From: Flammeovirgaceae bacterium | GTDB taxonomy: Bacteria; Bacteroidota; Bacteroidia; Cytophagales; Cyclobacteriaceae | NCBI GenBank assembly: GCA_044507775.1 | Contig: JBIQIY010000021.1 | Span: 22,766-86,765, forward strand | Length of the DNA: 64,000 nucleotides | Direction: 5' to 3' | In this document: positions 23,224 to 54,482 of the stretch, piece after piece | How the letters are laid out: the number at the start of each line of letters is the position of its first letter | How positions within the stretch are numbered: the first letter of the stretch is position 1 | Translations under genes and position numbers: made by a program | Notes under the pieces: generated by a model | Database searches by the model: none | What the model saw: the letters and a program-made list of their open reading frames with translations, nothing else | What the model was told of the DNA's origin: nothing

Positions 23224-25623
23224 ATGTTCAAGAACCTTCTTAAGATCTCGCTAAGGACCATTGTCAAGGAAAAGACCTACAGCATCCTGAATATCGCAGG
23301 GCTGACGATTGGTATTACATGCAGTATGTTCCTGCTCATGTATATCCTGCATGAACTGAGCTATGACCGCTACCATGAGAATGCCCGGAACATCTATCGC
23401 GTGGTGTCCAACATCAAGGAGCCGGACAATGCGTTTACATGGGCCGTTGCGCAGATCCCGCTTGCGGAGGAATTGCGGGACAACTATCCGGAAGTAAAAA
23501 ATGCCGTCCGGTTTTTTGGAACCGGCCGGGCGCAGTACAAGAACGGCGACAAGCAGTTTTACGAGGAGGAATTTTACATGGCCGATTCCACGGTGTTCGA
23601 CATGTTCTCCTACAAGTTTCTCTATGGCGATCCGGGAACGGCGCTCGATGCGCCTTTCTCCATCGTTCTCACCGAGAAGACCGCACAGAAATATTTCTCC
23701 GACCTCCACACGGCTTTGGGCCAGTCGATCCAGAATCTGCAGGGAGAGGAATTCAAGGTAACGGGGATATTGGAGGACGTCCCGCTCAACTCGCACTTCT
23801 TGTTTGACGCGCTGATCTCGCGCAGCACACGCCCGGGCTACACGGGGAACTGGGGTGGCTTTGGTGTTTCCACGTACGTGTTGCTGCCGGAGGGCTATGA
23901 TCTGAATAAAATGTATGCAAGCCTCGACAAGATCATCAAGGAAAAAGTAGACCCGATTTTCGCGGAATTCGGTATCACGATCAAGTACGAGCTCCAGCCT
24001 ATCCTCGATATTCATTTGTACTCGAAGATCCAGGATGAAGCGGAGGAAGGCGGAGATATTACCTACATCTACATCTTTGCTTCTGTCGCCATCTTCATGC
24101 TCATCATTGCCTGCATCAACTACATGAACCTGGCAACTGCCCGCTCAGTCAACCGCGCACGTGAGGTGGGAGTGCGGAAAGTCATGGGCTCTCAACGAAT
24201 TCAGCTCATCGCGCAGTTCATCACGGAGTCGGTAGTGATAGCGCTGATCGCGATGACCATCAGTTTGCTGCTGATCTATGCATTGCTGCCGTTCTTTAAC
24301 GACCTGGCGAACAAGTCCCTTCCATTCAGCTTTATCCTTCAGGCGCCTGTGATATTAAGCCTGCTCGCCATTGTGCTGTTTGTCGGTATCGTGGGAGGAA
24401 GTTACCCGGCATTCTATCTGTCGGGGTTTAGTCCCGTGAATGTTTTGAAAGGAAAAATAACGGCACGTGGTGGCAACGCCTTATTCAGAAAATTTCTGGT
24501 TGCCTTCCAGTTTGCTATTTCCATCTTCATGCTAATCTCGACGCTTGTTGTGTTCGCCCAGCTGCAGTACATGCGGAACAAGGATCTCGGCTTTGTGAAG
24601 GAGCGGGTCGTGCGGCTTTCTCTGAACGAGCGGGCGCTCCAGGACCAGGCACAGGTGCTCGTTGACCGCCTGAAGCAGACGCCGGAAGTTGCGAGCGTTG
24701 GAATGGCATCAAGCTCGCCCGGCGACGGAATTGGAAAACTTCTTTTGAAAGTAGAGGACAATGATGGAAAACTTACGGATCGCGGTGTGGATCTCTTTTC
24801 TGCGGATTATGATTTTGTAAAGACGATGGGCATGACGATCGTGGAAGGACGGGATTTCTCGCGCGATATTCCGTCGGACACAACCTTTGCCGTATTGGTC
24901 AACGAGTCTATGGTCAAGCGCATGTCGTGGGATGATCCCATCGGAAAGAAATTTGTGTTTGCGGGGAATGGCCCCAACAATACGGACATTGAAAAGCGTG
25001 TTGTTGGAGTGTTGAAGGATTATCATCAGAACTCGCTTTACGATCCTATTGAACCGTTGATGATCCTGCTGGGCAAGCGCGATCGGCTGGTGTTTGTGAG
25101 GACCGTGGAAGGAGACGTGCGTCAATCTATTGCTGCGATCGGGAAAGCGTGGAAAGATATTTTTCCCACGTACGTGTTCGAATACGAATTTCTCGACGCG
25201 GACTTCAACTCCCAGTACAAGGCGGATGAGAAGCGCAGCCAGATCTTTACGGCATTTTCCGGATTGACGATCATCATCGCCTGTCTCGGCTTACTGGGTC
25301 TCGCGGCGTTCACAACGGAACAGCGAACAAAGGAGATTGGCGTGAGAAAGGTGATCGGTGCGACTGTCGGCAACCTGGTAGTGCTGGTGTCGAAAGAGTT
25401 TTTTATCCTCGTCGGAATCGGAATGGTTCTCGCGTTTCCCGTTGCATGGTATTTCACGAGCAACTGGCTTCAAAACTTTGCCTACCGTATCGAGCTTGAG
25501 AAACAATGGCCGGTGTTTATCATTTCAGCGCTGCTGGCTTTTATCATCACACTTGCCACGGTTGGATTTCACGTGGTGCGCGCAGCGTCGGCGAATCCGG
25601 TGAAGTCGTTGAGGGATGAGTAG
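23224..25623 (+). CDS. MacB/FtsX-family ABC transporter permease
   Basis: MFKNLLKISLR, LSYDRYH, IIACINYMNLATA, RAREVGVRKVMG, AFTTEQRTKEIGVRKV, ANPVKSLRDE; start set at ATG 23224. Confidence 0.93.
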   Translation: MFKNLLKISLRTIVKEKTYSILNIAGLTIGITCSMFLLMYILHELSYDRYHENARNIYRVVSNIKEPDNAFTWAVAQIPLAEELRDNYPEVKNAVRFFGTGRAQYKNGDKQFYEEEFYMADSTVFDMFSYKFLYGDPGTALDAPFSIVLTEKTAQKYFSDLHTALGQSIQNLQGEEFKVTGILEDVPLNSHFLFDALISRSTRPGYTGNWGGFGVSTYVLLPEGYDLNKMYASLDKIIKEKVDPIFAEFGITIKYELQPILDIHLYSKIQDEAEEGGDITYIYIFASVAIFMLIIACINYMNLATARSVNRAREVGVRKVMGSQRIQLIAQFITESVVIALIAMTISLLLIYALLPFFNDLANKSLPFSFILQAPVILSLLAIVLFVGIVGGSYPAFYLSGFSPVNVLKGKITARGGNALFRKFLVAFQFAISIFMLISTLVVFAQLQYMRNKDLGFVKERVVRLSLNERALQDQAQVLVDRLKQTPEVASVGMASSSPGDGIGKLLLKVEDNDGKLTDRGVDLFSADYDFVKTMGMTIVEGRDFSRDIPSDTTFAVLVNESMVKRMSWDDPIGKKFVFAGNGPNNTDIEKRVVGVLKDYHQNSLYDPIEPLMILLGKRDRLVFVRTVEGDVRQSIAAIGKAWKDIFPTYVFEYEFLDADFNSQYKADEKRSQIFTAFSGLTIIIACLGLLGLAAFTTEQRTKEIGVRKVIGATVGNLVVLVSKEFFILVGIGMVLAFPVAWYFTSNWLQNFAYRIELEKQWPVFIISALLAFIITLATVGFHVVRAASANPVKSLRDE

Positions 25624-25960
25624 GGTGGTGAGTGGTGAGTGGTGAGTGGTGAGTGGTGAGTGGTGAGTAGTGAGTAGTGAGTAGTGAGTGGTGAGTAGTG
25701 AGTAGTGCGGCTTAGGGGGTGTCTCTCTTTTCTTCGTGGGTGCGGCTTCTTTCGTGAGACGTGAGACGTCAAACGTGAGACGTGCGTGCAGCTCATCTTT
25801 TCGCTTTCTATTTCGGTGCTTCTGCTTTCTTTGGTGAGACGTCGAGGCCTACAAACTGATTCACGTCTCACGTTTGACGTCTCACGACAGGCGCGTGATG
25901 AGCTAAGAAGCAGCGAGCAACCCGTTCGGCCCTACTCACCACTCACCACTCACCACTCAC
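25624..25960. repeat. Nested inverted heptamer arrays (GTGAGTR outer arms, GTGAGAC inner arms) between convergent genes
   Basis: About 11 x GTGAGT(G/A) at 25628-25704 vs 4 x reverse complement at 25932-25960; perfect 25 bp inverted repeat 25760-25784 / 25862-25886. Confidence 0.88.
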
Positions 25961-49701: not shown

Positions 49702-52011
49702 ATGTCGCTATTTCCCCGAATTTTCAACATCCTGTCCAAACTGTTGAAAGCTCTCTGGCTTTTCATCGCCGGGTTTATCGCTGTCGGGATGATCTACTAC
49801 CTGCTGACGGGCGTGGAGCAGGGGATCGATGTTGTCATCCAGAGCGGCGAGCTTCTGGACTCCGGCATACTGAGCATCCTTGCCGTATTCCTTTGGTCAT
49901 TCCTGGTGTGGTACAGCAGTCGCACACTGAGTTACATCAAGCAGCACAAGGATGACGAGATCTTTTCCAAAAAGGCATCGGACGATGTCACATCCGAGAT
50001 GCTATATCACAAGTATTGTATACCGTCGGTTTTCTATCAGCACATTCCGCGGATGTTGGCGTACAATTGTTTTGTCAGTATCCAGGTGGCCATATTTCAT
50101 CTGCCCACATTCCTGGGTTGGTCTGCGTTGGCGATGATCCTCGTTATCGCGGCACACAACGTGTTTTACTTTATGCTGCACGAGTGGCTTTCGGGCTCGC
50201 GACACCGGCGATTCTACAGCTTCGTCAATCCGTTGATCATTGCGGCGTATGTGGCATTCCTGGTTTACCGGCTACTTATTGCGGGAGACAATACCGATGT
50301 GATTCACGACCCGATGCGGCACCGGTTTTGGCTGAGTATTATTGCGCTGTCAATGTTTTTGCTTCAGGTCGTCATCGTGTTCCTGTTCATCATTCGTCGG
50401 AAGAGTATCGATGCTCGGCGGAATGATCCTTCACTCAGGCACTCGCGTGTGCTGGCGCTTCTGGGTTTCAATCCCGCCTACAATGCCGCCGAGGCGCCGT
50501 ATTTCAACTTGCTCAATGGCGTGGCGGCGGTGGCACTTGTCTTTTATTTGTTGGCGATCTTTGTAATGCCTTTTTCGGAACTCATGGGTCCGATGGCGCT
50601 TGCGTTGCTCGCGTTGGGAATTCTGGCGGGGCTTGCCAACCTGGTCACACTCGTGAGCATCCGGAGTTCGTTCAACGTATCGATCATCCTTGTTGCCCTG
50701 GCCATGTTGTTCGGCCATTGGCGCGATCCATACCCCGTCCGGCTGTTGCCTGCGCAACACGCGGAGAGTTTCGGCAGCCGGCCGTCGACACCTGGTTATT
50801 TCAGCAAATGGTTTGAGCGAAGGATGCCGCTGATCGCCGCGGCGGATTCATCCCAAAAATTTCCCGTGTACATTGTACTGGCCAATGGGGGCGCCTCGCG
50901 CGCGGGCAAGTGGACGAGCAGTGTACTGAGTCATCTCCAGGATACGAGCTTTCAGGTGAATCCGTCAGACAGCTTCAAAGATCACGTGCTATGCATTGCC
51001 GGGGCATCGGGAGGATCGGTAGGCAACTGCGCGTTTTACAGTTTGCTGAAAGCGGAACACGCCGGTGACATACACGGAGATGAATTCCGCGTGCATGCGG
51101 ATACATTTTTTGAATCCGACTTTCTTACGTATACACTCGCGCGCTTGCTCGGCCCGGATATGTTCCGGCATCTGGTACCCTTCAACATTGCATTGGACAA
51201 CCGCGCCGATGCGCTAGAGAAAGTGATCGAGTCCGGTTCGCGGGATACATTGCTGGGCAGTTATTTCGGAAAGCCTGTTACCGAAGTGTTTGACACCACG
51301 GGCGCGTTGCCGATCCTGCTCATCAATACCACGCAGGTTGATAATGGGATGCCTGGAGTCATCAGCACCGTGAAGCTCCCGAGGCATTCACAGCGCCAGG
51401 ATGTACTGAGTCTTGTTGACAGCATCAGCGCGCACGGCGGCTCCGGCGATCTACGCCTCAGCACGGCAGCGGTTCTCAGCTCGAGGTTTCCGTACGTTTC
51501 TCCCGCGGGAAAAGTCTTCGATCGCTATTACGTCGACGGTGGTTATTTCGACAACTCGGGCGCCGGCACCGTGCTTGAGTTCATCCAGGCGCTGAACGAG
51601 TTTTTGTCCGACAGCACGCAGTCGGAGATCATCCGTTACCGCGACCGGCTCACCTTTCACATCGTCCACATCACGAACTCCGAAGTGCTTCAACTTCCTT
51701 CACGCGATATCCATCCTCTGACGAACGATTTACTCGCACCCATCTTAACGCTGGCGGGTATGCAAGGCTCGAGCACCAGCATCGGCAACGGCATGCTCGT
51801 GAACGCTTTCACCCAGTTTAACACAGACACCACGAATGCGATGATTGTTTACAGTCTCTACGATGAAAGTTGGGATCTTGCGAAAAACACAGGTGAGTAC
51901 GAGGAGGGATATCCTATGAGCTGGGCGCTTTCGGATTATCAGCTTGACAGGATGGATCGGGCGTTGAAGCGCGCGAATGAACGGAATCTTGGGAAGCTGG
52001 TTGGACGTTAG
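49702..52011 (+). CDS. Polytopic membrane protein with a C-terminal patatin-like phospholipase domain
   Basis: About 8-9 N-terminal TMs; GGASRAG, GASGG nucleophile elbow and YVDGGYFDNSG. Confidence 0.85.
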   Translation: MSLFPRIFNILSKLLKALWLFIAGFIAVGMIYYLLTGVEQGIDVVIQSGELLDSGILSILAVFLWSFLVWYSSRTLSYIKQHKDDEIFSKKASDDVTSEMLYHKYCIPSVFYQHIPRMLAYNCFVSIQVAIFHLPTFLGWSALAMILVIAAHNVFYFMLHEWLSGSRHRRFYSFVNPLIIAAYVAFLVYRLLIAGDNTDVIHDPMRHRFWLSIIALSMFLLQVVIVFLFIIRRKSIDARRNDPSLRHSRVLALLGFNPAYNAAEAPYFNLLNGVAAVALVFYLLAIFVMPFSELMGPMALALLALGILAGLANLVTLVSIRSSFNVSIILVALAMLFGHWRDPYPVRLLPAQHAESFGSRPSTPGYFSKWFERRMPLIAAADSSQKFPVYIVLANGGASRAGKWTSSVLSHLQDTSFQVNPSDSFKDHVLCIAGASGGSVGNCAFYSLLKAEHAGDIHGDEFRVHADTFFESDFLTYTLARLLGPDMFRHLVPFNIALDNRADALEKVIESGSRDTLLGSYFGKPVTEVFDTTGALPILLINTTQVDNGMPGVISTVKLPRHSQRQDVLSLVDSISAHGGSGDLRLSTAAVLSSRFPYVSPAGKVFDRYYVDGGYFDNSGAGTVLEFIQALNEFLSDSTQSEIIRYRDRLTFHIVHITNSEVLQLPSRDIHPLTNDLLAPILTLAGMQGSSTSIGNGMLVNAFTQFNTDTTNAMIVYSLYDESWDLAKNTGEYEEGYPMSWALSDYQLDRMDRALKRANERNLGKLVGR

Positions 52012-52032
52012 TCATTAGGTGAGTCGTTATTC

Positions 52033-53165
52033 GTGAGACGTGAGACGTGAGACGTGAGCCTGCCTGCCTGTCGGACCGCGCGCGGGCAGGCAGGTGGTGA
52101 GTGGTGAGTTGTGAGTGGTGAGTTGTGAGTGATTCTATGTAAGCTCTGCATTTTAGTCCTGGAAGGGGTGAGACGCTGTGTTTAGGTTTGCTAATCGCAA
52201 ACCCGCTTGCCCGACGAAGCTAGCGCGAGGACAAGCGTTGGCGAGCGTAGTTGGTGCCTGCCCGACGAAGCCTGCGAGGGAGAAGAGGGGTGGAGGGTGA
52301 ATCGTGAGTGGTGAGTTGTGAGTAGTGAGTAGTGAGTAGTGAGTTGTGAGTGGTGAGTTGTGAGTGATTCTATGTAAGCTCTGCACTTTAGTCCTGGAAG
52401 GGGTGAGACGCTGTGTTTAGGTGAGCTGATCGCAAACCCGCTTGCCCGACGAAGCTAGCGCGGGGATATGCACTGATGAGCGTAGTTGGTGCCTGCCCGA
52501 CGAAGCTAGCGCGGGGATATGCGCTGATGAGCGTAGTTGGTGCCTGCCCGACGAAGCTAGCGCGAGGACAAGCGTTGGCGAGCGCAGTTGGTGCCTGCCC
52601 GACGAAGCCTGCGAGGGAGAAGGGGGTGAGGGGTGAATCGTGAGTGGTGAGTGGTGAGTTGTGAGTAGTGAGTTGTGAGTGATTCCATGTAAGCTCTGCA
52701 CTTTAGTCCTGGAAGGGGTGAGACGCTGTGTTTAGGTGAGCTGATCGCAAACCCGCTTGCCCGACGAAGCTAGCGCGGGGATATGCACTGATGAGCGTAG
52801 TTGGTGCCTGCCCGACGAAGCCTGCGAGGGAGAAGAGGGGTGGAGGGTGAGTGGTGAGTGGTGAGTGGTGAGTTGTGAGTAGTGAGTGGTGAGTTGTGAG
52901 TTGTGAGTAGTGAGTGGTGAGTTGTGAGTGATTCCATGTAAGCTCTGCATTTTTAGTCCTGGAAGGGGTGAGATGCTGTGTTCAGGTTTGCTATCGCAAA
53001 CCCGCTTGCCCGGGGAAGCTTGCGCCGGGATATGCGCTGATGAGCGTAGTTGGTGCGTGTCCGACGAAGCTAGCGCGGGGACAAGCGTTGGCGAGCGCAG
53101 TCTGGCCTGCCCAACGAAGCTGGCGCGAGGATAAGGGTTGGTGAGTGCAGTCGGGCCTTGCCCTA
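52033..53165. repeat. Hierarchical mosaic repeat array: 4 x [heptamer tract + 78 bp core + 1-3 x 51 bp hairpin module +/- terminal module]
   Basis: Cores at 52131, 52366, 52681 and 52930 (each 78 bp); 51 bp modules at 52209, 52444, 52495, 52546, 52759 and degenerate copies at 53008-53158; terminal modules at 52260, 52597 and 52810. Confidence 0.92.
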
Positions 53166-53246
53166 CGTACCTTTTCGAGTTGTGAGCGTTGGATTCAGAA
53201 CTTGAACTTCACAATAAACTGGAGGGTCATTCTGACGAGTCTCAAT

Positions 53247-53408
53247 AAAGCCCTGAAAGGGCGGGAGATAACAGCCCAGGGTGACGAGCCCGAACCATAT
53301 TGAGCTTGGCTGTCTCACAAAGCCGGCGTGGAAAAACAGGAATCCGAAGCGCACGGGCGAGGAGCCCTGGGTCAAAGGCGATGAAAAACCGAAAGCCCTG
53401 AAAGGGCG
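53247..53408. repeat. REP-like doublet GCCCTGAAAGGGC flanking a split CCCAGGG/CCCTGGG palindrome
   Basis: AAAGCCCTGAAAGGGCG at 53247 and 53392; AGCCCAGGG at 53273 and CCCTGGG at 53365. Confidence 0.7.
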
Positions 53409-53534
53409 TAATACGAGCCGCGGGACGTGCGGGTGGATTACGTGCCGTAACAATCCCATCAACGAAGTCCGTGGATTAAATGCAACCATCCAATTTCTTT
53501 ATATTTTAGCAAATTAAGTACCGCAAGCTTCCAG

Positions 53535-54482
53535 ATGGCAAATCCCGAGGTGTCCTTCATTATTCCCGTCTACAATGAGGTGGAAGTATTTTCTCTGCTT
53601 GTGGAAAGGATGGATGCGCTGGCGTCGCGAATGACCGAAAGCTGCGAAGTGATTCTCGTGGACGACGGCAGCACCGATGGTACGTCACTCCTCATGGAAA
53701 CCCTGGCGCTAAAGGATCCAAAATATCAATGTATTTTTCTCTCCCGGAACTTCGGCCAACAAAAGGCCCTGGGAGTAGGTTTGGATTTTGCGCGAGGCGA
53801 GTACATCATGCTGCTGGATGCTGACCTCCAGGATCCACCGGAACTGTTCTTTCAGTTTCTGTCGAAAATAAAGGAGGGTTACGATGTTGTTTACGGCGTC
53901 AGAAAGGGACGCAAGGAGGGATTATTAAAAAGAGGATCTTATAATTTTTTTTATAGGTTTCTTAACCATATATCCAACTACCCCATCCCAAAACACGCGG
54001 GTGATTTTGGAATGATAACACGTCGCGTTGCGAAAGCCATAAACCTGAACCGCGAAGAGAGCCGGTTCCTTCGCGGAATTCGAAGTTGGGTAGGATTCAA
54101 TCAAACCGGGCTGGAATACGAAAGACGTGGACGCGCGGCCGGAAGCGCCAAGTATTCGCTTGACAAACTTATCAAGCTCGCACTGGATGGCATCTTTAAT
54201 TTTACGACGATACCCATCAAAGTGCTGATCCTGCTGGGCATACTGTGCATCAGCGCTTCAGGAATCTATTTTATCGTGACGGTTGTCAGGAAGTATGTCT
54301 ACCATGACGTTCCAACGGGTTTTACCGCACTGTTGTTTGTCATCATCCTGTTTGGAGGCTTCCAATTTCTTTCCTTGGGGATTATAGGTGAATACATCCA
54401 GAGAATTTTTTTCCAGGTCAAACAGCGACCCTTGTATGTAATCAAAAAGAAAATAGTGAACGGGGTAACAATTCATGAGTAG
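53535..54482 (+). CDS. GT2 polyprenol-phosphate glycosyltransferase (GtrB/ArnC-like)
   Basis: SFIIPVYNE, ILVDDGSTD, LSRNFGQQ, DADLQDPPE, AGDFG, two C-terminal TMs, IIGEYIQRIF. Confidence 0.92.
   Translation: MANPEVSFIIPVYNEVEVFSLLVERMDALASRMTESCEVILVDDGSTDGTSLLMETLALKDPKYQCIFLSRNFGQQKALGVGLDFARGEYIMLLDADLQDPPELFFQFLSKIKEGYDVVYGVRKGRKEGLLKRGSYNFFYRFLNHISNYPIPKHAGDFGMITRRVAKAINLNREESRFLRGIRSWVGFNQTGLEYERRGRAAGSAKYSLDKLIKLALDGIFNFTTIPIKVLILLGILCISASGIYFIVTVVRKYVYHDVPTGFTALLFVIILFGGFQFLSLGIIGEYIQRIFFQVKQRPLYVIKKKIVNGVTIHE

Follow-up and report, generated by a model that had tools for sequence, protein, structure and literature searches.

A four-unit nested repeat array downstream of a patatin-like gene in a Cytophagales genome is probably a non-coding mosaic amplified in place

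Between a patatin-like phospholipase gene and a family-2 glycosyltransferase (GT2) gene of a bacterium of the phylum Bacteroidota (order Cytophagales) lies an interval of ~1.5 kb, wholly non-coding, which holds a repeat array built on several scales at once. Is this array a dedicated genetic device, or did ordinary repeats multiply where they stood? We studied it in a window of 64 kb, meaning the whole stretch of DNA analysed (contig C28, positions 22766-86765); positions given here without a contig label are those of the window. The host assembly amounts to 5.34 Mb in 58 contigs, with a GC content of 50% and a completeness rated 100%, and the array is interior to a contig of 103.8 kb and has coherent genes to its left and right. 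Our results indicate that the array is probably a mosaic similar to the bacterial interspersed mosaic elements (BIMEs), non-coding and amplified in place, and not a dedicated genetic device.

The anatomy of the array was read from positions 51700-53500 with Tandem Repeats Finder (TRF), a repeat finder and our own parsing. Four units occupy positions 52094-53160, each composed of a (GTGAGTN)n tract followed by a 78-nt core and then by 51-nt modules, which come in two versions, X and Y; the segment that closes the first three units is called T.

52095-52130, + strand: heptamer tract H1, (GTGAGTN) x ~5 (TRF, parsing)
52131-52208, + strand: core 1, 78 nt, with the intact hairpin GGTTTGC-TAATC-GCAAACC (parsing, folding)
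52209-52259, + strand: module X1, 51 nt, a palindrome like the repetitive extragenic palindromes (REPs), -21.2 kcal/mol (nhmmer, folding)
52260-52303, + strand: T1, a truncated module (its first ~19 nt) plus degenerate G-rich heptamers, inter-unit junction (nhmmer)
52304-52365, + strand: heptamer tract H2, ~8.6 units (TRF, parsing)
52366-52443, + strand: core 2, the 5' arm of its hairpin now GGTGAGC and the stem broken, z +1.3 (parsing, folding)
52444-52596, + strand: modules Y1, Y2 and X2, 3 x 51 nt (TRF, period 51)
52597-52639, + strand: T2 junction (parsing, nhmmer)
52640-52680, + strand: heptamer tract H3, ~5.6 units (TRF, parsing)
52681-52758, + strand: core 3, 77/78 identical to core 2 (parsing)
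52759-52809, + strand: module Y3, identical to Y1 (51/51) (parsing)
52810-52846, + strand: T3 junction (parsing)
52847-52929, + strand: heptamer tract H4, ~12 units (TRF, parsing)
52930-53006, + strand: core 4, 77 nt, the most diverged, hairpin intact (GGTTTGC-TATC-GCAAACC) (parsing)
53007-53173, + strand: distal modules Y', X' and X'' plus a short fourth relic (parsing)

An initial annotation of this DNA, made from its letters, had described a hierarchical array of four units, and both the hierarchy and the module order were reproduced by sequence reading, TRF, the repeat finder and parsing: X-T in the first unit, Y-Y-X-T in the second, Y-T in the third and Y'-X'-X'' in the fourth, which is followed by a short relic at 53160. 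TRF reported a period of 51 (3.3 copies, 93% matches) together with period-7 tracts of 5-12 units. The cores start at 52131, 52366, 52681 and 52930, with lengths of 78, 78, 78 and 77 nt, and share 70-77 of 78-79 positions in pairwise comparisons. Three periods are thus nested in the array, of 7, 51 and 235-315 nt. The longest exact internal repeat measures 135 nt and joins units 2 and 3 at an offset of 315 nt; unit 1 is slightly more distant from these two, unit 4 is the most diverged, and tract lengths differ between units. The distal modules are likewise the most diverged, matching the corresponding proximal modules at ~43-46 of 51 positions, in agreement with the decay at the distal end that had been described, and X'' retains the 3' arm typical of the family, GTCGGGCC.

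Where do these building blocks come from? We defined the module family with an iterated nhmmer profile, after discarding an earlier loose regular expression that had given 970 mostly spurious matches. The profile search identified the 51-nt module as a variant of a 46-nt palindrome, GCCCGAC-GAA-GCY…RGC-GYA-GTCGGGC (consensus TGCCCGACGAAGCCAGCGGTGGCATGCGCGGTGAAGCGTAGTCGGG), present in the genome in ~37 copies at 20 loci, nearly all of them outside open reading frames (ORFs); this is a low copy number for a REP family. Among 35 distinct copies the stems are kept: the outer stem, of 7 bp, is paired in 88% of cells and helix 2, of 3 bp, in 96%. Changes occur on both sides in 8 of the 14 module pairs, and at one pair 18 copies have C-G and 13 have U-A. 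The covariation analysis that the initial annotation had proposed gave a score of 0.179. Shuffles gave 0.132, with one in 500 attaining the score of the real copies, and slid registers did not exceed 0.084, so that the module stems stand above 499 of the 500 shuffles. In the 3x3 internal loop, where GAA faces GYA, the sequence is conserved, in contrast to the variable centre of the palindrome, of which X and Y are two versions.

As for the properties of a REP family, we found a palindrome kept across copies and a dispersed, intergenic distribution of these copies, and no cognate transposase flanking them. A G(T/C)AG motif is conserved at 90% or more, but it falls within the internal loop and the 3' arm (GCGTAGTCGGG) and not in a 5' head outside the hairpin, while the GTAG/GTGG head of the type found with REP-associated tyrosine transposases (RAYTs) is expected next to the palindrome. 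Outside this genome, the module was detected in 2 copies in one congener and as single, mostly chance-level matches in ~185,000 genomes, which suggests a family almost private to this species. Two module copies adjoin tRNA genes (C24:1-200 and C10:3600-3850); on C24, 23 nt from the 3' end of the tRNA that precedes the module are repeated after it (GGTTCGACTCCGATATTCTCCAC), as though the module had inserted with a target duplication, or as though this were an old attachment site.

The second building block, the heptamer tract, is more widespread. Period 7 accounts for 343 of the 1128 TRF rows of the genome, which merge into 372 tracts, and 78% of these lie outside ORFs in a genome that is ~12% non-coding (the placement statistics use a crude longest-ORF gene map). 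There are six or more word families, among them GTGAGTN, GTAAGTT, AAAGCAN, CGTGAGA, CTGGTTN and ATAGGGT. GTGAGTN forms 118 tracts with at least 3 exact units; among the merged period-7 tracts it contributes ~86 intergenic ones and CGTGAGA ~32. Of 26 congeners, 11 have GTGAGTN tracts too, and in the genus heptamer tracts are often found at contig ends. The median tract starts 0-3 nt past the stop codon of a co-directional gene, a distance that is due in part to how ORF ends were defined, and divergent promoter regions are avoided (4 of 86 for GTGAGTN). On the strand that follows genes, every word family includes a stop triplet, and three units are enough for stops in all three frames, a point also made for heptameric tracts in a review (PMC4679880). 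The tracts belong to a known class, the heptameric long simple-sequence repeats. A further period-7 tract of the window lies at 25611-25703.

Both families meet at many places besides the array. Module palindromes usually lie directly beside tracts, singly or 2-4 in tandem, and 13 of the 20 module loci are within 10 nt of a heptamer tract, compared with a chance expectation of ~1. At C20:21715, C48:3200, C57:136888 and C4:145381 there are 2-4 modules in tandem, interleaved with tracts. At the AAAGCAN-associated loci (~9; for example C20:21640-21905, C57:136880-137080 and C41:63500-63600) the tract is on the same strand as the module and immediately 5' of it, and on C57 tract and module alternate twice, forming a smaller, core-less version of the array. 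These results are in line with the BIME-like mosaic suggested by the initial annotation: of the three building blocks, two belong to intergenic families dispersed in the genome, and the tract-plus-palindrome composite recurs at ~13 other loci.

The third block behaves differently. The core was absent from the rest of its own genome at low stringency (BLAST, nhmmer), as well as from 60 relatives, ~185,000 species genomes and a metagenome collection, and it had no BLAST match to the five cassettes of 23S_rRNA_IVP (IVP) genes described below; a metagenome search with the array-specific module subtype returned no related strain in which unit order could be compared. Judged by these searches, the core is the array's only locus-unique part. 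Hence the possibility, also raised by the initial annotation, that the parts are ordinary dispersed units holds for heptamers and modules and fails for the core. T, which had been taken for a distinct purine-rich terminal module, turned out to be composite: it matches positions 1-20 of the module model only (nhmmer), its 5' ~19 nt being a module start, and its remainder consists of degenerate G-rich heptamers (GTGGAGG, GTGAATC) of the kind found where GTGAGTN tracts start at other loci. The three T copies are nearly identical. In the genome the purine part of T is found at this locus only, and the whole unit was not found at several loci. Read this way, T is the junction expected from the tandem duplication of a segment that ended inside a module, beside a heptamer tract.

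These observations fit together in a model of local tandem amplification. Downstream of the patatin-like gene, a tract-plus-palindrome composite encloses the locus-unique 78-nt core. An early tandem duplication that broke within a module at one end and where a heptamer tract starts at the other would have created the T junction, which is common to all three T copies and thus would have arisen once. Unequal crossing-over or replication slippage could then have used the direct GTGAGTN tracts flanking the units as homology, giving rise to whole-unit copies and to tracts of 5-12 heptamers; at a smaller scale the 51-nt modules would grow and shrink likewise, to 1-3 per unit. Since the same process would act on tracts, modules and units, the three nested periods may be seen as three scales of one process. 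Ongoing exchange would keep the interior units alike, while the unit at the distal edge would escape homogenisation and drift; the near-identity of units 2 and 3 and the divergence of unit 4 fit unequal crossing-over between heptamer tracts. As for a likely effect, by analogy with the REP/BIME elements of E. coli, sense-strand hairpins on patatin read-through transcripts could serve as 3' stabilisers or partial terminators, separating patatin from the glycosyltransferase operon of the adjacent island.

Several points weigh against this model. Copy number and unit order are given solely by the assembly, and an exact repeat of 135 nt is risky for short-read assembly. That the heptamer tracts acted as crossover substrate is something we infer from the anatomy of the array, and the origin of the 78-nt core is not accounted for by amplification. 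Lastly, the proximal modules fold far better on the + strand, and the G-U pairs of their outer stems work on the sense strand only. This folding bias might be due to selection on the RNA or just to the composition of a G-rich strand, as the GC skew of the + strand of the array is 0.40 (G excess).

The first of these points leads to the question of whether the array is an assembly artefact, in which short reads from dispersed tracts and palindromes were chained together with a false copy number or order. Besides the 135-nt exact repeat between units 2 and 3, the draft nature of the assembly and the frequent position of heptamer tracts at contig ends in the genus would agree with such an error. 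However, the core is found only here, so core-bearing units could not have been borrowed from other loci; moreover, all four units carry private differences and the array sits well inside its contig between coherent genes. We therefore regard an artefact as improbable.

The second question is whether the array works as an RNA: it could be the 3' untranslated tail of the patatin mRNA, with hairpins selected for protection against 3'-5' exonucleases and/or as terminators ahead of an acquired glycosyltransferase operon. Its position is suggestive, as it begins 20 nt past the patatin stop codon, measured to the first heptamer tract, and is co-oriented with both flanking genes; module and tract families in general lie mostly after gene ends. 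At the level of structure, X folds at -21.2 kcal/mol (z -2.2) on the + strand compared with -10.7 on the - strand, outer-stem G-U pairs are present in 5 of 5 proximal modules, and the stems of the module family have been kept through compensatory changes. But a DNA hairpin that a transposase recognises should show such changes just as well, and the array hairpins are not followed by U-tracts. The fold of Y is weak (z -0.8), Y1 and Y3 having a mismatch in the inner stem, and whole units do no better than shuffles, with z-values of -0.13 on the + strand and -1.0 on the - strand. Besides, one or two hairpins suffice at the other 19 loci, so the eight found here would not be required. At one module pair G-U outnumbers A-C by 9 to 3, a bias from which no RNA strand can be deduced, because the copies depend on one another and each of the two changes is a CpG transition. 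Altogether a functional RNA seems unlikely.

Neither did the more elaborate RNA proposed by the initial annotation, with several structured domains, find support. In Rfam the array had no match, either with cmscan at the gathering threshold over the whole window or at E <= 1 over positions 51900-53600, and the unit z-values are those given above. The only good hairpin of the core, GGTTTGC/GCAAACC, is intact in units 1 and 4; in units 2 and 3 one arm reads GGTGAGC and the stem is broken, without a change that compensates. With regard to the inner stem that both module versions had been said to close, the statement holds well for X (8 bp including G-U) and weakly for Y. A coding function was also rejected: three ORFs of 72-94 aa start at the same point of the core on the minus strand and their products are of low complexity, but unit 1 reads the modules in another frame than units 2 and 3. 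No frame is kept across units and no Pfam match was obtained, which agrees with the earlier view that the array contains no credible ORF.

Could the tracts instead form a phase-variation locus whose changes in tract length switch the downstream glycosyltransferase/methyltransferase operon? Heptamer tracts are prone to slippage (Mrazek 2007, cited in PMC4679880) and the downstream genes plausibly modify surface glycans. Within the array, however, no sigma-70-like promoter site was found, the one weak motif resembling the Bacteroidota -7 element lies in core 1 and is not common to all cores, and no promoter-like motif overlaps any heptamer tract. In addition, ~600 nt, including two unrelated REP copies, separate the end of the last tract from the start of GT2, and ~290 similar tracts follow unrelated genes. 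A switch of this kind is hardly credible here.

Next, we considered the genomic surroundings, where Pfam identified patatin, GT2 and methyltransferase among the flanking genes. The two immediate neighbours are as follows.

49702-52011, + strand: patatin-like phospholipase, 769 aa, upstream of the array (Pfam PF01734)
53535-54482, + strand: family-2 glycosyltransferase, downstream of the array and first gene of a low-GC insert (Pfam PF00535, GC profile)

Orthologs of the patatin gene, with 57-74% identity, were found in 8 congeners, each followed by an unrelated spacer of 70-680 nt, and neither the array nor a relic of its core or modules was present in that spacer in any of the 8. In two congeners, G022 and G021, the patatin ortholog is directly followed by a 609-aa gene, whose ortholog in the host genome (C28:93609-95438, 77-81% identical) is displaced by ~18.8 kb; this displacement implies that ~18.8 kb were added in the host genome relative to G022 and G021. 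The insert spans positions 52012 to ~70843 of the window (C28:74777-93608), with the array at its left edge, and carries low-GC cargo (0.36-0.49): the GT2 and methyltransferase genes together with RHS tip/immunity cassettes. The initial annotation had placed the array at the border of an acquired region, and both the ~18.8-kb insert relative to two congeners and the drop in GC content, to 0.36-0.47 within the insert, bear this out.

This location would also be expected of a recombination or insertion platform, that is, a repeat cluster at which the island was captured or cassettes are exchanged. The array coincides exactly with the left junction of the insert, GC content shifts at its position, and the genes downstream of the patatin ortholog vary among congeners. 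Yet the right border of the island shows no matching repeat, module or att-like direct duplication. Furthermore, no integrase or recombinase domain was detected among the flanking genes tested with Pfam, no tRNA lies within the window, and the three Y1 transposases of the genome are on other contigs, flanked by other repeat families. A platform is in our opinion very unlikely, and a role of the array in island capture is conjecture, co-location being what the comparison shows.

How does an array amplified in place compare with known systems? The initial annotation knew of no described element with this architecture, which is overstated, as the BIMEs of E. coli, the BOX elements of pneumococcus and a Porphyromonas MITE (miniature transposable element with inverted repeats) that contains a minisatellite are close analogues. 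Like the BIMEs of E. coli and other enterobacteria, the array is intergenic, non-coding and located after a gene 3' end, as they usually are, and it combines an imperfect palindrome, which can be iterated in tandem, with other short motifs, the copy number varying by locus. It differs from BIMEs in having unrelated sequences and a longer palindrome, of 46-51 nt, in which a 3x3 internal loop is conserved. A further difference is that the module family was not found around any Y1 transposase. In addition, heptamer microsatellites and a 78-nt piece unique to the locus form part of the mosaic, which as a whole is repeated four times, at one locus only.

The BOX elements of S. pneumoniae, boxA-(boxB)n-boxC, consist of a head, a variable number of ~45-51-nt modules and a tail; they exist in over 100 scattered copies and have the character of mobile units. 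The array shares with them the head-(module)n-tail layout, but here head (the core) and tail (T) are in tandem at a single locus. Because the core and the purine part of T are confined to one locus, we rejected the array as a dispersed BOX-like or MITE element. Regularly spaced direct repeats with hairpin potential are a feature of CRISPR arrays as well. This candidate was discarded, since the would-be spacers are themselves repeated and there are no cas genes, the neighbours being patatin, GT2 and methyltransferase; on this point the earlier description was accurate.

Heptanucleotide repeats have been described as the short tandemly repeated repetitive (STRR) sequences of cyanobacteria, as TAACTGA repeats (MacGregor 2015, PMC4679880) and as G-rich heptamers of Xanthomonas and Nostoc (PMC4692102). 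The tracts studied here resemble the STRR/TAACTGA class in their period of 7, their overwhelmingly intergenic location, their lineage-specific words and, in the forward orientation, their stops in three frames, often touching stop codons. In contrast to that class, the words are GTGAGTN, GTAAGTT, AAAGCAN, CGTGAGA and CTGGTTN, they are coupled to a REP-like palindrome, and the tracts appear to serve as homology for a higher-order duplication. As to the MITE with a minisatellite of Porphyromonas gingivalis (PMC4596501), it is dispersed and has terminal inverted repeats; both are non-coding elements of Bacteroidota in which a tandem repeat is nested in a larger unit, whereas the array is a single-locus amplification.

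The initial annotation had also suggested looking for a linked RAYT. The genome contains three Y1 genes (PF01797) of ~150 aa, at C45:29355-29696, C3:193-534 and C53:52516-52857, each flanked by its own dispersed palindrome family in a RAYT-like arrangement; NCBIfam assigns the three proteins to IS200/IS605, under the cut-off for REP_Tyr_transpos. None of the three is flanked by the module family, an absence that is not absolute in a 58-contig draft with masked stretches.

A different kind of gene is associated with the tracts. Five 23S_rRNA_IVP genes, coding for Avd-like four-helix-bundle proteins (PF05635), are located at C47:126206-126523, C52:27408-27719, C16:313933-314250, C49:51830-52144 and C52:62769-63047. 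Four of them lie between inverted heptamer arms, whose word differs from gene to gene and in each case matches a genome-wide tract family (AAAGCAG; GTGAGT+GTGAGAC+GTGAATC; a CAATTG-type word; GGGATATA), and the motif ATAAACCCTCTC-N5-8-ATG precedes three of the five (C52:27408, C16 and, as a variant, C47). Because most IVP genes carry such matching arms, and because palindromes adjoin tracts beyond chance, it is conceivable, if only as a long shot, that heptamer tracts and palindromes are two halves of one propagation system and that the array was caught amplifying. Tracts would then be seeded or bound by Avd-like proteins, and palindromes would be targeted to tract ends or generated there. If this were true, nested arrays would record active copying, by template switching or HUH-type nicking, and not passive unequal crossing-over.

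The array itself matters little, as it is probably neutral, illustrating how REP-like hairpins and simple repeats can give rise to a nested array by repeated unequal exchange, here at the edge of a strain-specific island. It is likely to be hypervariable, which could make it useful as a strain-typing marker, and with its 135-nt exact internal repeat it serves as a warning for assembly. The wider pattern is of more interest: word families that hug stop codons, Avd-like cassettes with inverted arms of the same words, and palindromes coupled to tracts. Bacterial heptamer repeats are without an accepted mechanism, and the association of tracts, IVP genes and palindromes bears on that question.

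Finally, three further features share the interval with the four units.

52032-52058, + strand: (CGTGAGA)x3.9 leader tract, from a second family of dispersed heptamers (TRF; many BLAST matches across contigs)
52059-52094, + strand: GC-rich 36-nt hairpin CCTGCCTGCC-N16-GGCAGGCAGG, abutting heptamer tract 1 (inverted repeat)
53240-53410, no strand assigned: copy of another REP family, GCCCTGAAAGGGC hairpins around CCCAGGGTGACGAGC...GAGGAGCCCTGGG (repeat finder, BLAST)

The leader bears on the extent of the array, for which 52033-53165 had been proposed: the array is there, but position 52033 falls in the separate CGTGAGA tract and GTGAGTN begins only at ~52095. The 36-nt GC-rich hairpin at 52059-52094 was missing from the earlier description; the arrangement of hairpin plus GTGAGTN recurs at C13:36009, and GGCAGGCAGG has 63 occurrences genome-wide. 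The GCCCTGAAAGGGC hairpin of the third feature is present in 74 copies genome-wide, and its family is the one that flanks the Y1 transposase on contig C3. One hairpin of this C3 type, at 53249-53281 on the - strand, gave a sub-threshold Rfam match to Acido-Lenti-1 (RF01687; 28.8 bits against a gathering threshold of 37, E = 4e-4), a motif that may itself be a REP-like repeat.

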